From Vairimorpha necatrix (taxonomy: Eukaryota), in the NCBI GenBank assembly GCA_036630325.1, contig CP142729.1:1-64000 (forward strand): a DNA stretch of 64,000 bases, given 5' to 3'. Of the stretch, positions 1 to 56,899 are shown piece after piece. Position numbers and translations under genes: made by a program. The notes under the pieces were generated by a model, which worked only from the letters and a program-made list of their open reading frames with translations, was not told the DNA's origin and ran no database searches. Each line of letters opens with the position of its first letter. Within the stretch, counting starts at the first letter, position 1.

Positions 1-1840
1 ACCTAACCTACCTACCTACCTAACCTACCTAACCTACCTACCTAACCTACCTACCTACCTAACCTACCTACCTAACCTACCTACCTACCTACCTAACCTA
101 CCTACCTAACCTACCTAACCTACCTAACCTACCTACCTAACCTACCTAACCTACCTAACCTACCTAACCTAACCTAACCTACCTACCTACCTAACCTACC
201 TACCTACCTACCTAACCTACCTAACCTAACCTACCTAACCTAACCTACCTACCTAACCTACCTAACCTACCTAACCTACCTAACCTAACCTACCTACCTA
301 ACCTACCTAACCTAACCTACCTAACCTACCTAACCTACCTAACCTAACCTACCTAACCTAACCTACCTAACCTACCTAACCTAACCTACCTAACCTACCT
401 AACCTACCTACCTAACCTACCTACCTAACCTACCTAACCTAACCTACCTAACCTACCTAACCTACCTAACCTAACCTACCTACCTAACCTACCTACCTAA
501 CCTACCTAACCTACCTAACCTACCTACCTAACCTACCTACCTAACCTACCTAACCTACCTAACCTAACCTACCTAACCTACCTAACCTACCTACCTAACC
601 TACCTAACCTACCTACCTAACCTACCTAACCTAACCTACCTACCTACCTACCTAACCTACCTACCTACCTAACCTAACCTACCTAACCTACCTACCTAAC
701 CTAACCTACCTAACCTACCTACCTACCTAACCTACCTACCTAACCTACCTAACCTACCTACCTAACCTACCTAACCTACCTACCTACCTAACCTACCTAA
801 CCTACCTACCTACCTACCTACCTACCTAACCTACCTAACCTACCTACCTAACCTACCTAACCTACCTAACCTACCTAACCTACCTACCTACCTACCTACC
901 TACCTAACCTACCTACCTACCTAACCTACCTAACCTACCTAACCTACCTAACCTACCTACCTACCTAACCTACCTACCTAACCTACCTACCTAACCTAAC
1001 CTACCTAACCTAACCTACCTACCTACCTAACCTACCTAACCTACCTACCTACCTAACCTACCTAACCTAACCTACCTACCTAACCTACCTAACCTACCTA
1101 ACCTACCTACCTAACCTAACCTAACCTACCTACCTAACCTAACCTACCTACCTAACCTACCTAACCTACCTAACCTACCTAACCTACCTACCTAACCTAC
1201 CTACCTACCTAACCTACCTACCTAACCTAACCTACCTAACCTACCTAACCTACCTAACCTACCTACCTAACCACCACCACCTACCTAACCTACCTACCTA
1301 CCTACCTACCTAACCTACCTAACCTACCTAACCTACCTAACCTACCTAACCTACCTAACCTACCTACCTACCTACCTAACTACCTAACCTACTACCTAAA
1401 CCTACCTACCTAACCTACCTAACTCTACCTAACCTACCTAACCTACCTAACCTAACCTACACCTACCCTAACCTACCTACCTACCTACCCTACCTACCTA
1501 CCTACCCTACCTAACCTAACCTACCTACCTAACCTACCTAACCTACCTAACCTACCTAACCTAACCTAACCTAACCTAACCTACCTACCTACCTACCCTA
1601 CCTAACCTACCTACCTACCTACCTAACCTACCACCTACCTAACCTACCTACCTACCTAACCTACCCTAACCCACCTACCTACCCTACCTAACCTAACCTA
1701 CCTACCTACCTAACCTACCTCTATCTAACCTACCTAACCTACCTACCCTACCTAACCTACCTAACCTAACCACCCTACCTACCCTACCTACCTACCTACC
1801 TACCTACCTAACTACCTACCTACCTAACATACAAACCTAA
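1..1840 (-). repeat. Terminal telomeric array of mixed TTAGG/TAGG units (CCTAA/CCTA on + strand)
   Basis: Continuous CCTA/CCTAA units from base 1, with the C-rich strand at the 5' end as expected for a left chromosome end. Pure to ~1270, then variant units (CCA, CCCTA, CTA) to ~1840. Confidence 0.95.
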
Positions 1841-2002
1841 CACGTAAGCTTTTAGCCCTCAAACCTTCGTGAATATTTTGTTTAAAAAATTTATTAGTTA
1901 AATCAATATGTAACTAAAATAAATAAAAATTGAAAATTTGTTGATAAAATTTATCTAACTATCTTTATAATTCAATTATTTTTTTTCAGATTAATGATTA
2001 TA

Positions 2003-5000
2003 TGTTATACATTTATTTAATAGGAAAGTTCAACCCTAACATCCCCCTCCAGACGTGTAGTCTCACGTTACAAGCTTCTAATTTATCATTTTATAATCTT
2101 TTAGGTCATAATGTCGTTTTTTAATGTATCTTTTGCTATCAGTCCTTACAATATAAGAATCATTCTCACACTTTCCCATTATTTTACCAACACTTGTAAA
2201 TCTTATTTTCATACATTTCATCTATTTACCCCAAGTTTTCTCTTCTTGCGATTCTCAAAGCCTGATCTACTTCAAATTTATCTCTTTCCTTTGTTTAAAA
2301 TTACTTGCATACACACCCTTTTTAACGTTTTCAATAAAGACTTCTTTTCCTTGTTCTTTACATGCTTCCATTGGTGTACATTTTATCGCTGTGTGTAAAA
2401 TGTTATAATAGGTTCTTAGCTTGTTCTAGTTTTTACTCTGGGTTTCCTTCTTTTTATTTAATCAATGATTCCCTTATTGTTCAAATACATCGTTCAATTT
2501 TCCATTGCTCTTATGAGCTTCTAAACCTACTTTCCATTGCATAATTCCGTTTTCTTAACACCAAGTTACAAACTTCTCACTGAGAAATTTCTTACCGTTA
2601 TCCGAAATATTCATCTGGGCATCCATCTTCATTTATCAAATATCCTAAAATTTTCGTATTAACATCACTTCCTCTATTTTCCATTTTTGCGCCCTATACT
2701 TTTCTTCTAAGTAGTCAATCCCTAATAGCAGGTATTTTTTGTTTTCCTCGATAACAATTACGTGTAAAGCTACTTTTTCTAATTTCTTAAATATAGTTAC
2801 AAAATTGCAACCTCCAGTCGTTTTTCTGTTATTAATGCACTATATTCCACAATTTTTTAGCGTTGTGGATATCAGGTCAAATAGCTGGTCAGTACAATCT
2901 TTGTTTTTCCTTATAATAAGGTCTTTTTCACTTCACGATGATTTAATTCCTCATGAACTCTGCGAATTTCTGTTCTCATTTATTTTTTTGTGTTGTATTT
3001 AATAATTTCTATTGTTGAGAACTTCCAATAGTTTTTGCCTTCTCTTTTAACCATGCGCTTTTTTTCTTTCCATTTAATTTGTTTTTGGTGCGTTTATCTC
3101 TTTCGCCTTTTCAATTACTTCGTTATTTTTAAATTGTCTACTAAGAGCATCCACATACATCATCAATTCTGTTTTTACATATTCAATAGTAAAATCGAAC
3201 TCTTGTATATATTCTATCCATCTCTTAATTATGTAATTATTAAAAAACGGTTTGTTTCTAATCTCGGCCATTCCTTTATGATTTGTCATTTATTGAAATT
3301 TTCTTCCCCCAAATCTGACTCGAATTTCTTTATTTCAAATAACACTGCCAACATCTCTTTTTCACTAATCGTATACTTTTTAGCTGTTGGTGTTAGCATT
3401 TTTGATGCCCATTGTATTAGAATCTACCTATCTTCCTTGTCTTCTTGCAGAAGTATAACTCCAATTCCCTTATCGCATGCACACGTTCTTACTCTAAATA
3501 TTTTTTTATCTATCTTCTATTTTTAATTTTTTCACATCCTTTAAATCCTCTTTGATATCCATAAAAGCTCTTTCCATATCTTGGGACCATTTTCATTTAC
3601 TATCTTTTTTTAGTGCTCTTGTAAGAAGCGCTGACCGATAAGCATAATGATGAATAAAATCTCTTAACCAGCCTGCCCGCTCCTCAACACTTCTAAGATC
3701 TTTTATGTTGTTAGGCTTTCTGTATTCTAATGTCTACTCCTATATATTTTTTCGGTTTAATGTCTTCTCAGTTAATTGTTACTCCAAGTAGTTTTTCTTC
3801 TCCTAATTTATATTGTATCTTTCTTGAGTTTACTTTTAATCCACATTCATTAAATTTTCGAATTACTTGTTTTAAAAAATTTTCTTGTATATTACTATCT
3901 CATGCATAAATAATAAAATCCATGTACACCTCAACACTCTTGCCTCTAAACTTATCTAAAACTCCGTTCATCACTCTTTGCATAATATGGGGAGCATTTT
4001 TTAATTTTTTACCATGCCATTCCATTCGTAAACTCTACCATTTATCTTAAAAGCTGTCTTATGTTTGTAAGCTCTCTCAATTTCTATATGATAGAATCTT
4101 TCCTTTAGGTCTATAACCATAAATACTTTAGAACCTTGCGTTGCTTTAATATGTCTCTAATCAATGGCAAATCATACGGATCTTTTTATTCCAGTTCATT
4201 ATAAGCCATCAAATTGCTTCTCAATTGTACTTTACCATTTGGTTTTTCTATGGGCTTTATTAGGCTTTTCCATTTGCTCTTTGTCTTTCTGATAATACCT
4301 CTACTTTCTAATAAATTAATATACTTTTCTAACTTTTCTCGGAGTTTATAAGGAATATTTTGTTTCTTTTGCACTACTTTTACTCATTGTTTTGTTTTAA
4401 AAGAACATTTTATCCCTGTTAAGTATTTTCTTTTCCCTCTGTCTTTTCACAATACCTCGAAAATTTTCCTTCTAATTCTTCATATTTATTAATATTTTTT
4501 CTTCTTTTATCTTGGTTTGTATTTTTTACATAAAAACTGTTTCTTGAGTTCTCTCTTTTTACCTCCACTGGTAGTCTCAATTTAAAATCAATTCATTTTT
4601 AATATTTTCATTTTACTTTTCCACAAATGCCAAAATATTTAACACTTTTATTTTCATTATTCTCTTCCTGTCTTCCTTTACGCTCCATACAACCTCTAGC
4701 TATATGTATAATTCTCCCACATATAAACCAATGTTTTTCTTCTCGTCTTTGATATTGAAAGTATCTTCCTGACACTGCTACAGTCCTAGTCAGTTATCCT
4801 TTCATCTTCTTTTTAATTTTTCCTTCATACCCTCTACCATATCTTCTAGTTCTCTACTCCTTATTTTTTCCTTGTTCTTATTCTCTTCCTCTTCAATAAC
4901 TAATTTATCAATTTCATCAATAATATTATTCCAATTAATCATAATGATTAAATTTTTATCAATAATAAAATCCTGAAGCTCAGAATTTACTTGTTTTATC

Positions 5001-13936: not shown

Positions 13937-15087
13937 GGTTAAATTGCGATGTTACCCCCCCCCCCCACCCCTAAAAAAATAAAAAAAAGGGGGAAAAATA
14001 AAAAAAGGGGAAAAAATAAAAAAAAGGGGAAAAAATAAAAAAAAGGGGGAAACAAAAAGGAATAAAATTATACCCCTAAAACTAACATCAAAAATTTTAA
14101 TAAATTAATATACCAAAAATAGGAATTAATTACATTTCTTCTTGAAAAAAATATATTAAAGGTATCAATATGCAATAAGTGCATGACACCCATGACCAAA
14201 ATTAGAAATAATTTGGACAAATATCGTTGTTACTTACGACGAAATGGGAGAAAATGCTCAAACAAAGGTAACATTTACAAAGAAAGCATTTTTAAAAGTT
14301 CTAGATTAGATATCGAAGATCTTTTAATTTAGCTGTGTGAATGGTTTAAGGTGTAAGCAATGTTTCGGCTACTATCGAAATGGATATAGATAGTAGTACC
14401 GTATCTCGCTAGTTTACGCGTTTTAATAACGCTGTATTCTTATCCTATTTCAACTACCTTCAAAACAAAACCATAGGAGGTTTAAATTACGTAGTTAAAA
14501 TAGACGAGACATTGCTTGTTAAAAGTAAAAACCATAACAGTAGAATCCTTCAATACAAGTTTGGGCCGTTGGTGGAGTTGTACGAGGAGACAGCAATTCT
14601 TTTTTTTCAAAATTGTTAAAAATCGATCAAGAACTACTCTTGTCGATTTAATAAAACGAAAAATCGCACCTGGATCTACAATTATTACTGATTGTTGGCG
14701 GGGGTATAAAGGGGTTTCGGAACTATGTCTGGATTATAACTATTTACATTTAACTGTAAATCATAGCCAAAATTTTGTAAATCCAACAACAGGCGCCCAC
14801 ACCCAAACAATTGAGGGAATGTGGTCTGTAATTAAAAGGGAATTGCGCAAAGAAGGAACAAGCCATGGTTCTTTAATGAATCTCATTCGAAAACTTTATA
14901 TAGCTCGTTTTAAGTTAATTTATAGAGAATCACTACTTGAAAAAATGTTATGTTTTTTGAGATTGATAATATATCATTTTTAAATTACGATTTAGGGCCC
15001 GAATTTGATTTTGAATTGATTGAATAAATTTTGTTTCCCCCTTTTTTTTATTTTTTTAGGGGTGGGGGGTAACATCGCAATTTAACC
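13937..15087 (+). mobile_element. Merlin (IS1595/ISXO2-like) DNA transposon 1
   Basis: TIRs GGTTAAATTGCGATGTTACCCCCC and its reverse complement. 8-bp TSD AAAATATT at 13929-13936 and 15088-15095. Empty site with a single AAAATATT at 43161-43168 in copy B. Confidence 0.95.
14140..14983 (+). pseudogene. Merlin DDE transposase pseudogene
   Basis: The C-terminal frame has IITDCWRGY, HLTVNHSQNFVNPTTGAHTQTIEGMWS. The upstream Zn-ribbon and KIDET regions are broken by stops and frameshifts. Start coordinate is approximate. Confidence 0.88.
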
Positions 15088-18836: not shown

Positions 18837-20083
18837 GGTTAAGTTCTCGACTTACCCCCCCCCCCACCCCTAAAAAAAATAAAAAAAAATAAAAAAGGGG
18901 GGAAAAATAAAAAAAAGGGGAAAAAATAAAAAAAGGGGAAAAAATAAAAGAAATAAAAAATTTGACCCATAATGAGAATTAAAGAATTTAGAAAACTCAT
19001 CTATAAAAAAAATGAGTTAATGCAATTTTTAATTGCAAAAAACATTTTGAGGGTCCCTATGTGCAATAAATGCAATATACCAATGACTCAAAATCGGACC
19101 AACACTGAAAACTATCGTTGTTATTCAAGGCGTGATGGTAAAAAATGTTCTAACAAAGGAACCATAATGAAACAAAGCGTTTTTAAGAACTCAAAATTGC
19201 CTATTGAGGATCTTTTAATATTGCTTTGCGAATGGGTAAAGGGTTCAAGTAATTTGGCCGCCACGTTAGAACTTGATATAGGTAAATGTACGGTATCAAG
19301 ATGGTTTACGCGTTTTAATAACGCCGTGTACGTCTCTTATTCAACATATATAAACAATCAAACGATTGGCGGCGTCGGTTGTATTGTTGAAATTGATGAA
19401 ACTTTACTTGTAAAAAGTAAAAACCATGCGGGAAGGGTTCTTCAATATCAAGTATGGGCAGTTGGAGGCGTTGTGAGAGGAAATGCAAATTCTTTTTTCT
19501 TTGAGATCGTAGAAAATAGAACAAGAGCTACTCTTGTTGAATTAATTACAAGAAAAATTGCTCCGGGGACCACAATTGTGACAGATTGTTGGCGTGGATA
19601 TTGTGATATTCAAACAATCTGTGTAGAATATGAGTATCTACATTTGACTGTGAATCACAGCCAAAATTTTGTTGATAATATAACTGGTTCATACTCAGAC
19701 TATAGAGGGAATGTGGTCGGTTATTAAAAGAGAACTAAGAAAAGGAGGAACTAGTCATGGTACTATTATGAATCTTGTAAGAAAGATTTACATTAACAGA
19801 TTCAAATTAATATATCGTGAAAATCTATTGGATAAAATGTTAGAATTTTTTCAAATAGGTAATTTTAGTATTGTAGCTTATGATATTATTCCTGAAATAG
19901 ACTTTACAATTGTGGAATAATTTTTTTTGTTTTTTTTGGGGGGTAAGGGGGGTTAAGTCGAGAATTAAACGTTTTTTTATTTTTTTTTATTTTTTCCCCT
20001 TTTTTTATTTTTTCCCCTTTTTTTATTTTTTCCCCTTTTTTTATTTTTTTTGGGGTGGGGGGGGGTAAGTCGAGAACTTAACC
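18837..20083 (+). mobile_element. Merlin (IS1595/ISXO2-like) DNA transposon 2
   Basis: TIRs GGTTAAGTTCTCGACTTACCCCCC plus inverted subterminal A/G repeats. 8-bp TSD ATAATTTG at 18829-18836 and 20084-20091. Empty site at 46890-46897 in copy B. Confidence 0.96.
18972..19920 (+). pseudogene. Merlin DDE transposase (DDE_Tnp_IS1595-like), near intact with a single frameshift at ~19689
   Basis: ORFs 18972-19727 and 19711-19920. N-terminal CxxC..C..C ribbon, VEIDET, IVTDCWRGY, HLTVNHS. The sequence act ggt t cat act cag act ata gag gga atg tgg is TG[A]HTQTIEGMW lacking 2 nt. Confidence 0.92.
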
Positions 20084-26146: not shown

Positions 26147-27537
26147 ATTTAGACATAACATAATTTTTGTAAATATGACAATTCTTATTCAAGCTTATTT
26201 TTTTAGAAATTCTCATTAAATTATGCAAAAAATTATATATAATTATATAATATAAGTATCTTGATTTTGTAAGATGTTATTTATTTGAAATATGTCAATT
26301 TCTTTAATCTTATTTTCCATGCCCTCTCTTGGAAATTTTTTTTCTAAATACTTGTTGTAGCCAATTAAATCTGCCAATTTGTGAGAATATGATTGATCAG
26401 TATTTAATTAGCTACGATACTATCTACATTAAGTATGAAAATTATATTTTTTATAAAATTTCAATGTTAAATTCATATATACGTACTTATGATATTTTTC
26501 TATTATTCTTAATAGAAATTGTGTTTATTTACGATACATTTATATAATCGCTCCCTCGTATTAAATAAATAAAATATAAAATCTTCATGATATTTAAATT
26601 TCGTTTTATAAATATTAAAGTGTTGTATTTTTATACAGTATTGTTTTCCAATGGGGTATTGGTTGTTTTTTCTCCACAATTTTATTCTTTCTAATGTACC
26701 TCGATGTATTACAATAATAAGAATTCATCTTTAAATTCAAAAAATCTTTGTTATTGATTTATACACAAATTATATTCTGATTTGTTTAATTAAAAATCAT
26801 TTTATTCTATGTGTTGATACCGGCAATAATTATGCAATTGAATGTTTTAATTACATAAAAATACTTATATATTATTTGTTATTTTGAAAGTTCTATTATT
26901 TAAATACAATTATTTTTACTGCACTAATATTTATGTATATTTTTCTTGAATTTAAAGTTTTTATTTTGTACTTTTATATATATATATATATATATATGCA
27001 GATAGATACCCTTTAAAAAAAAAATTAAATCATGTATGTAATAAAGGTTTTAATTAAAATGAAAAAACTTCACAATCTAGTTACATATACTACATAAGTT
27101 ATTTTTACTAGTTTTTATGAGATGTCAATTTCTCCTTTTTTCGTGTTCATAATCTCTCTCATGTACAAATATACATCGATACTTTCCATTAGCCAAAAAA
27201 ATTAGAAATATTGCTGATACTTAAAGACTTGTATATATAATTAGATGTAATTGTAATTAAAATATAGATTGTTTCTGAAGTTTTTCAAATATTTAATCAT
27301 TATAATAAAAATTTTTACCAATTAGAATACATTTGTTAATTTTATTTTTATGTTAGAATGTTAAATCGTTAAAACGCCCACGGTTACACTAGAAACTTTT
27401 GGAATCATTCTGTTTTATAATCTTCATAATTATAACATACTTTGATTTACTTAAGAAAAAATAAATCATATAAACTAATAAGTACGCATATATATACACA
27501 CACATTCCTTGTTATCACATAAGACCGTACGATAATA

Positions 27538-28045
27538 TGCATTTTCAGCTGTTCTTAATTTTTTCATATTTTTCTAGATTTGTCTTCTTATATATATATA
27601 CAAGAAAGAGATGGAAAATTAACAAATTTCATAAAAGCTTTAAAAACAAAAAAAGATACAAAAAAGTACTTATATAACAAATATATGAATTTATATGCAT
27701 TTTCAGCTGTTCTTTTTTTTTTCATATTTTGCAAGATTTGTCTTCTTGTATATATATATATACAAGAAAGAGATGGAAAAATAACAAATCTTTTATATGG
27801 CTCAAAAACAAAAAAAGACACACAAAGTTCACTTATATAACAAATATATGAATTTATATGCATTTTCAGCTGTTCTTAATTTTTTCATATTTTGCAAGAT
27901 TTGTCTTCTTATATATATACAAGAAAGAGATGGAAAAATAACAAATCTTTTATATGGCTCAAAAACAAAAAAAGACACACAACGTTCACTTATATACCAA
28001 TAATATATATATATTTATATGTAGTCTTAGGCGTTCTAAATTTTA
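27538..28045. repeat. ~160-bp tandem satellite, 3 units plus a partial unit
   Basis: Unit starts at 27538, 27696, 27859 and 28020. Core agatttgtcttctt(at)n caagaaagagatggaaaa. Confidence 0.93.
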
Positions 28046-28667: not shown

Positions 28668-28692
28668 TACCTAACATACTTACCTAACCTAC
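28668..28692 (-). repeat. Interstitial telomeric tract (degenerate)
   Basis: tacctaacatacttacctaacctac, same orientation as the terminal array. It occupies the position homologous to the longer tract at 56574. Confidence 0.75.
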
Positions 28693-28899
28693 AAGAAAAA
28701 CGATTCTCAATAAAGTTTTTTTTAGTTAACACTAAAATTGACTTAATATACAAAATTAAATTCCATCCCTTTTTTTTTTATTATATTATCATATCACTTA
28801 GTTATAAAATATACTCATAATTGTTTGACAAGTTAAATTCTTGCTTCGATTAAACTAATATAAATATTATTCAAACATACGTTGTATTTAATAAATTAT

Positions 28900-32696: not shown

Positions 32697-32718
32697 CCTA
32701 CCTAACCTACCTACCTAA
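32697..32718 (-). repeat. Interstitial telomeric tract
   Basis: Perfect cctacctaacctacctacctaa, immediately followed by the same cacgtaagc junction seen at 1841. Confidence 0.9.
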
Positions 32719-32877
32719 CACGTAAGCTTTTAGCCCTCAAAACTTCTAAATATTTTGTTTAACAAATTATTCAGTTACATCAATATGTAACTAACATAAA
32801 TAAAAAATGAAACTTTTAGATAAAATTTATCTAACTATCTTTATAATTCAATTTTTTTGCTTAGATTCATGATTATA

Positions 32878-35800
32878 TGTTATACATTTATTTAATATGA
32901 AAGTTCAACCCTAAAATCCCCCACCAAACGGGTAGTCTCACGTTACAAGCTTCTAATTTTCCATTTTTATAATCTTTTAGGTAATAATGTTGTTTCTTAA
33001 TGTATCTTCATCTATCAGTCCTTACAATATAAGAATTATTCTCAGACTTTCCCCTCCTTTTATCAACATTTGTAAATCTTCCTTTCATACTTTTCATCTA
33101 TTTACCCTTGTTTTCTCTTATTGCAATTCTCACAGCCTGATCTACTTCAAATTTTTCTCTATGCCTTAATTTAAAATTACTTGAATACACACCCTTTTTA
33201 TTGTTTTCAATAAAGACTTATTTTCCTTGTTCTTTCCATGCTTCAATTGTGTTGAATTAATCGCTGTGTGTAAGAATTATTAGTTCTTACAGCTTGTTCT
33301 AGTTTTTCCTCTGGGTTTCCTTCTTTTTCATGGATCATCGATTCCCTTATTGTTCAAATACATCGTTCTATTCTTCCATTACTCCTATGAGCTTCTAAAC
33401 ATACTCTCCATTGCATAATTTCGTTTTCTTTACACCAAGTTACAAACTTCTCACTGAAAATTCTTTGCCGTTATCCGTAATATATTCATCTGGGCATCTA
33501 TTTTTCTAAAATTTTAGTAATAACATCACATCCCTTAAATTCCATCTTTGCGTGACATACTCTTGTTCTAAGTAGTCCATTCCTAATAGCACGTATCTTT
33601 CTATTTCCCCAATATCCATTACGTCATAAGCTACTTTTCTAATTTCTTAAATGCCAAAAAAAATTGCCACCTCCGATCGTTTTTCTGTTATTAATGCTAC
33701 ATACTTAACAAACTTTAGCGATGTGGTTATCTGGTCCTTCATACCTTGCCAGTACAGTCTTTGTTTTTCCTTATAATAAGTTTTTTTCACTCCTAGATGA
33801 TTTAATTCATCATGAACTCTGGAATTTCTGTCTCTTGTTAGTTCGTTGTGTAGTAGTTTTTTAATTTCTCCTGTTGAGAACTTCAAATATTTTTTACCTT
33901 CTCTTTTAACATGCGCTTTATTTCTTTTTCTTTCATCTGTTTTTGGGCCGTTTCTACTTTCGCTTTTTTACTTTCACTTCGTTTTTTTTAAATTGTCTAC
34001 TAAGAGCATCCACATACGTCATCAATTTTCCTTTTACATATTCAATAGTAAAATCGAACTCTTGTATATATTTCTATTTCTTCATTATGTAATTGTTGAA
34101 AAACGGTTTGTTTCTAATCTCGGCCAGTCCTTTATGATTTTTCATTTAATGAAATTTGCTTCCCTCAAATCGGATTCGAATTTCTTTATTCCAAATAACA
34201 CTGCCAACATCACTTTTTCATTAATCATATACCTTTTTTCTGTTGCTGTTAACATTTTTGATGCCCATTGTATCTGATTCCACTTTCCTTCTTTGTCTTC
34301 TTGCAATAGTATGGCTCAAGTTCCCGTATCGTATGCATCTGTTCTTACTCTACACATTTTTTTACTATCTACCATTTTTAATTTTTTCACATCCTTTAAA
34401 CCCTCTTTGATATCCATAAGAGCTCTTTCCATATCTTCGGACCATTCCCATTTAACATCTTTTTTTAGTGCTTCTGTAAGAAGCTCTGGCCGATAAGCAT
34501 AAAGGGAATAAAATCTGTAAACCGGCTTGCACGTCCCTCAAATCTTCTAAGATTTTTTATGTTGTTAGGCCTTCTGTATTCTAATGTCTTTTGCTTTTTA
34601 ATTTTGTTAGGTGTAATGTCTTAACCGTTAATTGATACTCCAGTAGTTTTACTTCTCCTTTATATTGTATCTTTTTTAAGTTTCTTTAAATCCACATTCG
34701 TTAAATTTTCGAATTACTTGTTTTAAAAAATTTTCTTGTATATTACTATCTCATGCATAAATAATAATATCATCCATGTACACCTCAACACTCTTGCCTC
34801 TAAACTTATCTAAAACTCCGTATATCACTCTTTGCATAATATGGGAAGCATTTTTAAATCCCTTTACCATGCCATTCCATTCGTAAACTCTATCATTTAT
34901 CTTTAAAGCTGTCTTATGTTTGTAAGTCTGTCAATTTCTATATGATAGAATCCTTCCTTTAGGTCTATAACCATAAATACTTTAGAATCTTGCGTTCCCC
35001 AATAATATCTCTAATCAATGGCAATTCATACGGATCTTTTTATTCCAGTTCATTATAAGCCATCAAATTGCTTCTCAATTTTACTTCACCATTTGGTAAT
35101 TTTATGGGCTTAATTGGGCTTATCCATTCGCTCTTTGTCCTTCTGATAATACCTCTACTTTAATAAATTAATATACTTTTCTCGATTATTATAAGAAATA
35201 TTTTTTACTTTTTTACTACTTTCACTCATTGTTTTGTTTTAAAAGAACATTTTATCCCTGTTAAGTATTTTATTTACTCTTCGTCTTTTCCTAATGCCTC
35301 AGGAAATTTAATTTCCAATTCTTCATATTTATTAATATTTTTTCTTCTTTTATCTTGGTTTGTATTTTTTACATAAAAACTGTTTCTTGAGTTCTCTCTT
35401 TCTATCTCCACTGGTAGTCTCAATTTAAAATCATTTCCTTTTAATATTTTCATTTTACTATTATCACGAATCCCAAAATATTTAACACTTTTATTTTCAT
35501 TATTCTCTTCATGTCTTCCTTTACGCTCCATACAACCTCTAGCTATATGTATAATTCTTCCACATATAAAACAATGTTTTTCTTCTCGTCTTTGATATTG
35601 AAAGTTTCTTCCTGGCACTGCTACAGTCCTAGTCAGTTTTTCTTTACTTTTCTTTTTAATTTTTCTTTCATAACATCTACCATATCTTCTAGTTCTCTAC
35701 TCTTATTTTTTCCTTGTTCTTAATCTCTTCCTCTCAACAACTAATTTATCAATTTCATCAATAATATTATTCCAATTAATCATAATGATTAAATTTTTAT

Positions 35801-52946: not shown

Positions 52947-54337
52947 ATTTAGACATAACATAATTTTTGTAAATATGACAATTCTTATTCAAGCTTATTT
53001 TTTTAGAAATTCTCATTAAATTATGCAAAAAATTATATATAATTATATAATATAAGTATCTTGATTTTGTAAGATGTTATTTATTTGAAATATGTCAATT
53101 TCTTTAATCTTATTTTCCATGCCCTCTCTTGGAAATTTTTTTTCTAAATACTTGTTGTAGCCAATTAAATCTGCCAATTTGTGAGAATATGATTGATCAG
53201 TATTTAATTAGCTACGATACTATCTACATTAAGTATGAAAATTATATTTTTTATAAAATTTCAATGTTAAATTCATATATACGTACTTATGATATTTTTC
53301 TATTATTCTTAATAGAAATTGTGTTTATTTACGATACATTTATATAATCGCTCCCTCGTATTAAATAAATAAAATATAAAATCTTCATGATATTTAAATT
53401 TCGTTTTATAAATATTAAAGTGTTGTATTTTTATACAGTATTGTTTTCCAATGGGGTATTGGTTGTTTTTTCTCCACAATTTTATTCTTTCTAATGTACC
53501 TCGATGTATTACAATAATAAGAATTCATCTTTAAATTCAAAAAATCTTTGTTATTGATTTATACACAAATTATATTCTGATTTGTTTAATTAAAAATCAT
53601 TTTATTCTATGTGTTGATACCGGCAATAATTATGCAATTGAATGTTTTAATTACATAAAAATACTTATATATTATTTGTTATTTTGAAAGTTCTATTATT
53701 TAAATACAATTATTTTTACTGCACTAATATTTATGTATATTTTTCTTGAATTTAAAGTTTTTATTTTGTACTTTTATATATATATATATATATATATGCA
53801 GATAGATACCCTTTAAAAAAAAAATTAAATCATGTATGTAATAAAGGTTTTAATTAAAATGAAAAAACTTCACAATCTAGTTACATATACTACATAAGTT
53901 ATTTTTACTAGTTTTTATGAGATGTCAATTTCTCCTTTTTTCGTGTTCATAATCTCTCTCATGTACAAATATACATCGATACTTTCCATTAGCCAAAAAA
54001 ATTAGAAATATTGCTGATACTTAAAGACTTGTATATATAATTAGATGTAATTGTAATTAAAATATAGATTGTTTCTGAAGTTTTTCAAATATTTAATCAT
54101 TATAATAAAAATTTTTACCAATTAGAATACATTTGTTAATTTTATTTTTATGTTAGAATGTTAAATCGTTAAAACGCCCACGGTTACACTAGAAACTTTT
54201 GGAATCATTCTGTTTTATAATCTTCATAATTATAACATACTTTGATTTACTTAAGAAAAAATAAATCATATAAACTAATAAGTACGCATATATATACACA
54301 CACATTCCTTGTTATCACATAAGACCGTACGATAATA

Positions 54338-55960
54338 TGCATTTTCAGCTGTTCTTAATTTTTTCATATTTTTCTAGATTTGTCTTCTTATATATATATA
54401 CAAGAAAGAGATGGAAAATTAACAAATTTCATAAAAGCTTTAAAAACAAAAAAAGATACACAAAAAGTACTTGTATAACAATAATGTGTATTTATATGTA
54501 GTCTTAGATGTTCTTAATTTTTTCATATTTTTCGAGATTTGTCTTCTTATATATATATATATACAAGAAGGAGATGGAAAAATGCCAAATTTCATAAATG
54601 CTTTAAAAACAAAAATAGATATTCAAAAAGTACTTGTATTACAATAATGTGTATTAATATGCATTTTCAGCTGTTCTTAATTTTTTCATATTTTGCAAGA
54701 TTTGTCTTCTTATATATATATATACAGGAAGGAGATGAAAAAATAACAAATCTTTTAAATCGCTCAAAAACAAATAAAGATACTCAAGTGTCACTTATAT
54801 AACAATAATATAGATTTATATGTAGTCTTAGATGTTCTTAATTTTATATATTTTTCGAGATTTGTCTTCTTATATATATATATACAAGAATAAGATGGAA
54901 AAAATAACAAATTCCATAAATGCTTTAAAAACAAAAAAAGATACACAAAAAGTACTTGTAAAACAATAATATGAATTTATATGTAGTCTGAGATGTACTT
55001 AATTTTTGTATATTTTTCAAGATCTGTCTTCTTATATATATACAAGAAGGAGATGAAAATTATCAAATTTCTTAAAAGCTTTAAAAACAAATAAAGAAAC
55101 ACAAAAAGTACCTGTATAACTATAATATGAATTTATAAGCATTTTCAGAAGTTCTTAATTTTTTCATATTTTTCAAGATTTGTCTTCTTATATACATATA
55201 TACAAGAAGGAGATGAAAAATTATCAAATTTCTTAAAAGCTTTAAAAACAAATAAAGAAACACAAAAAGTACCTGTTTAACTATAATATGAATTTATATG
55301 TAGTCTGAGATGTACTTAATTTTTTTATATTTTTCAAGATCTGTCTTCTTATATACATATATACAAGAAAGAGATGGGAAAAATCAAATTTCATAAATGC
55401 TTTAAAAACAATTAAAGTACCCAGGTGTCACTTATATAACAATAATATGAATTTATAAGCATTTTCAGAAGTTCTTAATTTTTTCATATTTTTCAAGATT
55501 TGTCTTCTTATATATATATACAAGAAAGAGATGAAAAATGGCAAATTTCATAAATGCTTTAAAAACAATTAAAGTACCCAGGTGTCACTTATATAACAAT
55601 AATATGAATTTATAGACATTTTCAGAAGTTCTTAATTTTTTCATATTTTTCAAGATTTGTCTTCTTATATACATATATACAAGAAGGAGATGAAAAATGG
55701 CAAATTTCATAAATGCTTTAAAAACAATTAAAGTACCCAGGTGTCACTTATATAACAATAATATGAATTTATAAGCATTTTCAGAAGTTCTTAATTTTTT
55801 CATATTTTTCAAGATTTGTCTTCTTATATACATATATACAAGAAGGAGATGAAAAATGGCAAATTTCATAAATGCTTAAAAAACAAAAAAAGATACACCA
55901 AAAGAAACTTATATAACAATAATATAGATTTATATGTAGTCTTAGATGTTCTAAATTTTA
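54338..55960. repeat. ~160-bp tandem satellite, 10 units plus a partial unit
   Basis: Unit starts at ~54338, 54497, 54660, 54821, 54982, 55138, 55299, 55458, 55616, 55774 and 55935. Confidence 0.95.
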
Positions 55961-56573
55961 AACATTGTTATTTCCTTCTTATATGTTTATCAAGTTATAG
56001 TTACTTATCTATAAAAAACATTTAAAATTATTTTTCTTTTAAAAATATCATCAAGAAAACCAATACTTCTTACTTTACATACATATACTATACATGTTAA
56101 TTTTTTTGTTTAGAAGTAAAGTTAATTTTCTTCTTCTTTCAAGTTCATTATCCTTCTTATATATACATATACATCTTTACAATTGATTTTTTAAATAGAG
56201 TATAAGTTCTGTGTACCCCAATGATTTGAATATATTAACCAATATTCAGATACAGTATGTTTCTGTTTGTTGTTAAAATACGTTATGTAGGGCTTTTTTT
56301 AATAATTTAGCTTCTTAGTGTATATAGTATATTATTGTTTTATAATTACAATTTAAAGGTTAAATTTCTACATTTACACTATTAAAATTATGGTTATTTA
56401 TTGACACAACTTCTTCATACATCGGTCATTTAAAAACTCAAAGGCCTAACAAACCATAATTGATGATCTAAATATACAAAAATATAAATAAATAGAAAAT
56501 ACTTTGCATTGCTTTGTTTTGCGGACTTAAATTGTTTCTTGAGTTAAGAATCGGTCTTTTCTAAATAAAAAAA

Positions 56574-56632
56574 TACCTAACCTACCACCTATACTACCTA
56601 ACCTACCTACCAACCTACCACCTCAACCTAAA
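56574..56632 (-). repeat. Interstitial telomeric tract (degenerate)
   Basis: tacctaacctaccacctatactacctaacctacctaccaacctaccacctcaacctaaa: CCTA/CCTAA/CCA units in the terminal orientation. Confidence 0.88.
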
Positions 56633-56899
56633 CTAAATTAGCCGTATCTCTTATTTAATGGCATTACGTTTGAGTTTAAAAAATTCCCAATTAAATTTGT
56701 CCTGAAAGACGTACTTATACTATAAACAATTTGTTATTTAAAGTGTTATCTTTAATTCGATCAAAACTATAATTACTATCATTTTTAAAAGTAAGATTTA
56801 GAGTTTAATGCAAAATTATAAAAAAATACCTTTGATCATATGATTGTATTCATTAATAATGATATTATATCATTCATTGCACTATAATATATTTTAGAA

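Follow-up and report, generated by a model that had tools for sequence, protein, structure and literature searches.

What writes a chromosome end in which two repeat units of unequal length are mixed without a period, and can one telomerase template account for it? The window considered here, by which we mean the whole stretch of 64,000 nucleotides that was analysed, is the leftmost part of contig C4 in a Vairimorpha necatrix genome of 15,005,441 bases in 12 contigs. The species, an insect parasite, is by description tetraploid, with four pseudo-haplotypes (PMC10759460). Microsporidian SSU rRNA genes are present in the genome, the five that were scored being all internal; the window itself holds no rRNA gene, and no RNA family reaches the Rfam cut-offs in it. 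Throughout, S denotes CCTA (TAGG on the G-rich strand) and L denotes CCTAA (TTAGG).

Architecture of the left end of contig C4

The telomeric features of the window are the following.

1 to 1270, minus strand: distal telomere, TAGG (166) and TTAGG (121) on the G-rich strand, in aperiodic and anti-correlated order
1271 to 1840, minus strand: proximal degenerate telomere, both units, interspersed with ~20 variant tokens (among them a G gained, a G lost or an A lost)
1841 to 1864, plus strand: telomere-subtelomere junction motif CACGTAAGCTTTTAGCCCTC, of which most telomeric ends in the genome have a similar version
28680 to 28693, plus strand: short internal telomere-like relic
32711 to 32723, plus strand: internal telomere-junction copy with which a duplicated subtelomeric block opens (3217-3508, for instance, recurs at 34073-34364)
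56570 to 56635, plus strand: degenerate telomere-like tract, internal, from a family of subtelomeric repeats, not regarded as a template candidate

An earlier note on this DNA had described the distal ~1.27 kb as made of CCTA and CCTAA alone, and indeed positions 2-1270 resolve into 287 units without remainder, 166 S and 121 L, the first letters outside this scheme appearing at 1271. Its run lengths, up to about 6 for CCTA and mostly 1-3 for CCTAA, are likewise borne out, S runs of one to six units numbering 55, 27, 11, 3, 0 and 2, and L runs of one to three units 79, 18 and 2. The extent it gave to the telomere, 1 to 1270, holds for the clean two-unit zone, but degenerate telomere goes on to 1840. 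The dominance it ascribed to a nine-base alternation of the two units was slightly overstated. Neighbour pairs in 2-1270 (LS 98, SL 98, SS 68, LL 22) comprise 196 unlike neighbours in 286, against 140.0 ± 8.2 and a maximum of 171 in 10,000 shuffles, and alternation thus exceeds chance; strict alternation over at least two periods, however, covers 172 of the 287 units, with a longest stretch of 9 units. The 9-mer is therefore the commonest block of the window without being a period, and the 4-mer is the commoner unit.

Inward of the junction, the subtelomere is built of duplicated blocks, transposase fragments and telomere relics. Large blocks occur twice within 1841-58800, at a spacing of ~27-31 kb and with internal telomere relics at their borders, and a tandem repeat of ~160 bases, in ~3 copies at 27535-28000 and ~10 copies at 54335-55959, lies each time shortly before such a relic. 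The fragments at 14504-14983 and 18966-19727 belong to IS1595/ISXO2-like DDE transposases (PF12762), which we take to be Merlin-type.

Unit order across the chromosome ends

Is the mixture peculiar to this end? We fetched all 24 contig ends of the assembly, each represented by a single consensus sequence rather than by single molecules. The mixed array caps 21 of them over ~1.1-3.7 kb each, with the G-rich strand oriented towards the chromosome end, while C8-left, C3-right and C11-right are without a terminal telomere in the assembly. These three ends carry a junction-type telomere relic 14-50 kb inward (G000:C3:1417392, C8:15451, C11:965331). On the 21 capped ends we counted 6,251 TAGG, 4,154 TTAGG and 574 other tokens, TAGG thus amounting to 60% of units (60.5% on left and 59.6% on right ends).

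The tabulation of unit-to-unit transitions that the earlier note had proposed was carried out on 54 uninterrupted clean segments of at least 30 units each, 7,532 units in all, and revealed a biased, anti-correlated order. In the pooled segments, an L is succeeded by another L in 624 of 2,985 cases (0.209) and an S by an L in 2,346 of 4,493 (0.522). P(L|L) is below P(L|S) at each of the 20 ends that had clean units in sufficient number; C3-left was too degenerate for scoring. The chain is close to first order in these segments (G = 753 from order 0 to order 1, then 14.5 and 13.7); TAGG run lengths decay geometrically, up to 10, and TTAGG runs do not exceed 6.

This order bears directly on the number of templates involved. 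Two telomerase RNAs, either paralogues or haplotype alleles, could in principle write TAGG and TTAGG on the same ends, as the earlier note had envisaged with two co-expressed templates. Systems with two RNAs are known from the plants Capsicum and Vestia (PMC12133305) and from Zygosaccharomyces sapae (PMC8211666), and the four pseudo-haplotypes of V. necatrix (PMC10759460) are represented in the genome searched here by one haploid set. Yet if the two RNAs were chosen independently, any processivity p >= 0 would give P(L|L) >= P(L|S); a lower frequency of TTAGG behind TTAGG than behind TAGG, as observed (0.21 vs 0.52), is beyond the reach of independent action. Even the best-fitting mixture of this kind predicts 442 LLL and 1,036 SLS among 7,167 triplets, where 156 and 1,819 are observed; under a free first-order chain, 125 and 1,776 are expected. 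A pair of RNAs would be viable only where each enzyme favours the ends made by the other, and we regard it as improbable. As unit order contradicts the independent mixing of two templates, it points to one template, used position-dependently.

Could the order instead have been copied, the array spreading from end to end by recombination in the manner of a satellite, without telomerase? One pair of ends would fit such a process: C9-left (L038) and C2-right (L043) are identical over 227 proximal units, or 1,134 bases, variants included, and diverge distally, which is compatible either with a recent exchange between ends or with assembly from shared reads. The internal junction copies held by the subtelomeres would fit as well. 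Among the consensus ends, however, order differs from one to the next, contrary to the identical order that the earlier note had considered: the longest common run between end pairs has a median of 18 units, compared to 19 in Markov simulations, and apart from C9-left and C2-right the largest shared run is 30 units, where the simulations reach 28. Within the window, the longest internal repeat spans 15 units, with ~18 expected by chance; the distal part of the array is the cleanest, and the gene for the telomerase reverse transcriptase (TERT) is intact. The lack of a shared order, together with the clean distal zone, makes copying without telomerase very improbable.

A second way of dismissing the mixture, also raised by the earlier note, would be to take the true repeat as pure TTAGG and TAGG as the product of base-calling or assembly errors. 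In its favour, the passages available of two papers give the pentamer alone for V. necatrix (PMC10759460, PMC12449221), and our ends are assembly consensus rather than raw reads. At the level of the assembly, such errors would have to delete one T from 60% of units, equally on left and right ends, and in strong dependence on the previous unit; they would also have to explain how two ends agree over 1,134 bases, and a composite telomere was independently reported for Nosema muscidifuracis, in 28 table rows (PMC11592040). Given the strand symmetry, the context dependence, the long exact agreement between two ends and the separate finding of the mix in a relative, an artefact is scarcely credible.

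The deviations from the two canonical units have an order of their own. Variants make up 21% of tokens in the first 250 bases beside the junction and fall to <1% at 1,250-2,000 bases (C2-right being omitted as a duplicate), though a few ends show a renewed rise at their tips. The commonest variant token is CCTAC, seen 123 times on 16 ends alongside 8,020 canonical units. In this commonest variant, an extra G before TAGG, TAGG comes next in 55 of 81 cases, but it can equally be explained as a T-to-G change within TTAGG. Errors in the G run concentrate at TAGG-TAGG joints (156 of 2,891, 5.4%), compared to 0.7-1.3% at the other three joints (22 of 2,966, 40 of 2,978 and 9 of 847).

Taken together, the array is with high probability a real telomere made by telomerase, given its terminal position at 21 of 24 ends, an order that differs per end, the concentration of variants at the junction, and an intact TERT. 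The latter is encoded on C3, in an open frame of 912 amino acids that contains a single Telomerase_RBD match and also bears RVT_1, both domains (PF12009 and PF00078) exceeding the Pfam cut-offs. The protein matches an NCBI entry labelled Vairimorpha necatrix TERT at 100% and is 55% identical to the TERT of V. ceranae.

A proposed compound template and the search for its RNA

How, then, could one enzyme write both units? The other proposal of the earlier note, a single telomerase RNA with a compound template that is aligned in several registers, is probably correct: the unit order fits it, while the corresponding locus was not found in the genome. In the mechanism that we favour, one telomerase RNA would carry a short compound template with a TAGG unit immediately followed by a TTAGG unit, which in the simplest case would have originated from an ancestral TTAGG template by the loss of one A from one copy. 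TERT would add just one or two units per engagement, after which the DNA end would pair anew over a few bases, several registers being available to it. An end in TTAGG would mostly take the register that gives TAGG (79%); after TAGG, synthesis would either move onward to TTAGG (52%) or slip back and rewrite TAGG (48%). Such register choice and slip-back would yield geometric TAGG runs, few TTAGG runs, and an order unique to each end.

A rare error type offers a closer view of the template. Where TTAG, lacking one G, is followed by TAGG, the next letters are TT 31 times out of 32, over 16 ends, whereas after a normal TTAGG-TAGG they are TT in 1,533 cases and TA in 1,417 (52% TT); the 32 cases are partly tandem or common to several ends, and hence partly non-independent. 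The simplest reading is that the template is able to write G-TAGG-TTAG in one pass, and hence contains CUAACCUAC: after mis-annealing by one base, TAGG-TTAG would be read through. Not all cases can be put down to mere duplication of an S-L stretch, since 8 of the 32 are preceded by an L-type unit. The simple slip-back model, on its part, requires an extra assumption, as read-through in 31 of 32 cases exceeds the 52% seen after ordinary TAGG. More generally, the positions of errors suggest where re-annealing occurs. We would thus expect a template containing 5'-CUAACCUAC-3' plus at least one further C at an end, the core of which would read CUAACCUAC or CUACCUAAC in TERT-bound RNA; its permutation cannot be fixed by unit statistics.

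The main competitor of the compound template is a single telomerase RNA with a plain TTAGG (CUAACCUAA-type) template, on which TERT skips one T, mainly on the alignment-side copy. The same anti-correlated order could arise in this way, the order as such proving only the position-dependent use of one template. In Encephalitozoon and Ordospora, the repeat is TTAGG (PMC11592040, PMC12449221), stalling, stuttering and misincorporation have been named as sources of telomere heterogeneity (PMC8211666), and the different TAGG shares of relatives, 60% here vs 81% in N. muscidifuracis, would be explicable by altered enzyme kinetics; moreover, TTTAGG, the opposite error, does occur (27 times). However, skipping would have to prevail, giving 60% of units, while TTTAGG amounts to only ~0.3%, and the TTAG-TAGG-TT cases are most simply understood with TAGG itself templated. 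Plain-template sites were also sought in the genome, either of the form CCTAACCTAA or beginning with CCCC/GGGG, and no convincing one emerged. We consider a plain template rather unlikely, though a serious competitor.

What such an RNA gene might look like is indicated by other non-coding RNAs of this genome: U6 (C7:716642, minus strand; L178), U2 (C2:258563; L179) and RNase MRP (C1:1141738; L180) start directly after GGGG/CCCC and end at a T run, as is likewise described for Encephalitozoon and Nosema (PMC5499648). The non-telomeric template locus that the earlier note had suggested seeking did not emerge. The search covered 14 patterns at non-telomeric sites of one haploid set, as perfect matches with four-letter CCCC/GGGG starts, behind a flank filter able to miss sites and with three ends lacking their tips; for one pattern 100 of 133 matches were listed, and for two further patterns 20 of 69 were examined. 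Among the matches listed, about 150 template-like sites (115 + 20 + 13) include no credible telomerase RNA locus. The 115 distinct non-telomeric matches to at least 9 bases of the circular 9-mer lie in open frames (31), in repeats (69), these two classes overlapping, or in neither (29), and none of the 29 has a convincing layout for a non-coding RNA; the additional 20 and 13 sites gave nothing. At Rfam, 10 candidate loci had no match, and 6 others a single chance match.

Seven candidates were followed, of which six were rejected and one is unsupported. A 12-base match in a predicted helix of ~16 bp (G000:C5:921844, minus strand; L061:1400-1530) lies antisense within UTP21, with a fold z of about -1.5, and the residues encoded there are not conserved in three relatives, one of them in a V. 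bombi cluster. Another 12-base match (C8:724213) is antisense inside a frame of 1,106 amino acids. An 11-base match (C1:968349) is located between two dispersed repeat ends, which form its apparent closing helix, in a broken duplicate gene copy. In this region of C1 (L175:636-6213), directly ahead of a large conserved gene, a THUMP-like gene has been duplicated in tandem together with its neighbour; the copies have diverged, and nested insertions break that of the neighbour. A search with the THUMP-like neighbour of the candidate gave no relative. The 9-base match at C5:1052574 (minus strand), despite a fold z of -3.9, belongs to a repeat family with 17 matches; C6:470999 (minus strand; fold z -0.5) is the end of a retroelement-like frame, and C1:911782 (minus strand) a transposon end. 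The seventh, C8:58543 (L065:1495-1508), is a perfect telomere match of 14 bases at 18% G+C, without an upstream CCC/GGG start motif, which could be bound by a protein of the telomere type, or else be a relic. A TATA-like run and a GGG lie close by on its minus strand.

The failure to find the locus weighs mildly against the compound-template explanation. With a negative, non-exhaustive search of one haploid set, it is from unit order and error spectrum that we infer the compound template.

Relation to known telomeres

How far does the composite telomere extend beyond this genome? Fourteen public runs, two of them bee metagenomes, held 45-48% of 149 words sampled from window positions 1-2400, and six RNA runs held 30-34%; in the same interval, 58% of 31-mer positions are canonical with at least two S units. 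Three of the four runs aligned to SSU rRNA (X4, a bee metagenome, X7 and X11) had deep, close, non-identical Nosematid rRNA, while X1 had none. X4 contained two different Nosematid SSU rRNA types (L281:1400-2900), and X1, the run with the most telomere words, no Nosematid rRNA. In JGI metagenomes, a 36-base mixed pattern had no matches, and a 22-base pattern had 14, all 14 of which are short interstitial, microsatellite-like tracts; mixed words are thus not telomere-specific. A wider occurrence of the composite in the clade, as read from public-run words that are not placed on a telomere, is only a lead. We would put forward tentatively that the composite is the common state of the Vairimorpha/Nosema clade, including bee parasites, that repeat finders have mis-called it as TTAGG, and that one compound, multi-register template writes it, with the core CUAACCUAC legible from the error spectrum; its RNA would either have a split template or share sequence with a gene or repeat, in place of a regular stand-alone gene in intergenic DNA. 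If true, microsporidia would thereby have their first known telomerase RNA: in the literature searched, with subscription journals mostly outside it, none was found, and the word stem 'telomer' is absent from the available passages of a survey of Encephalitozoon and Nosema non-coding RNAs (PMC5499648).

A composite TAGG/TTAGG telomere has already been published for N. muscidifuracis, and V. necatrix is a further case. Since the phenomenon is published and mixed telomeres are familiar, the surprise is modest. To this we add statistics over all ends, a predicted template core and a set of loci that were excluded, and we reject mixing by two independently acting templates. The pentamer given for V. 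necatrix in two papers is thereby corrected, and the N. muscidifuracis composite is no one-off. In addition, unit order and error spectrum constrain the telomerase mechanism and supply a concrete sequence to seek in TERT-bound RNA, and sister species with differing TAGG shares provide a natural snapshot of repeat change without a second RNA gene.

Within the microsporidia, N. muscidifuracis is the closest counterpart. Its telomere mixes TAGG and TTAGG with a rare TAGGG of 1.5% (PMC11592040), and the sums that we computed from Table S4 of that paper are 11,951 TAGG vs 2,792 TTAGG. Both species have the two units interspersed, with a TAGG majority, a rare TAGGG, similar tract lengths and a Nosematid host genome; here, too, TTAGG stands among the commoner TAGG in a Nosema/Vairimorpha species, with a rare third form (CCTAC, 123 on 16 ends). 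They differ in the TAGG share by count, 81% there and 60% here (6,251 vs 4,154). In its available passages, PMC11592040 calls the composite unreported in other microsporidia, names TTAGG, on short-read data, as the candidate repeat of N. ceranae, and contains no analysis of unit order, the word 'telomerase' being absent from its main text. Regarding V. necatrix, the passages available of PMC10759460 and PMC12449221 give the repeat as a pentamer, and 'TAGG' as a word is absent from them; in the literature searched on Vairimorpha telomeres with TAGG, the mix is reported in PMC11592040 alone, as far as the accessible text of these sources goes.

More distant systems provide precedents for parts of the mechanism. 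For Tetrapisispora (PMC8211666), it has been proposed that a single template, whose sub-repeats allow annealing in two registers, gives rise to two unit lengths of 28 and 25 nt; there the units are long and the template is identified, whereas V. necatrix has units of 4 and 5 nt and a template that was not found. In Capsicum and Vestia (PMC12133305), RNA paralogues give two repeat types per cell, while the order in V. necatrix is anti-correlated, unlike that expected of independent templates. Encephalitozoon and Ordospora (PMC12449221, PMC10759460), with the same TERT family, have the TTAGG pentamer that is the minority unit here. Finally, Microsporidia sp. MB and Glugoides intestinalis have a 4-mer, TTAG (PMC13174016, PMC12449221), likewise shortened by one base; in these telomeres it is a G that is lost, and a single motif is described in the passages available, whereas in V. 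necatrix it is a T, and both forms coexist.
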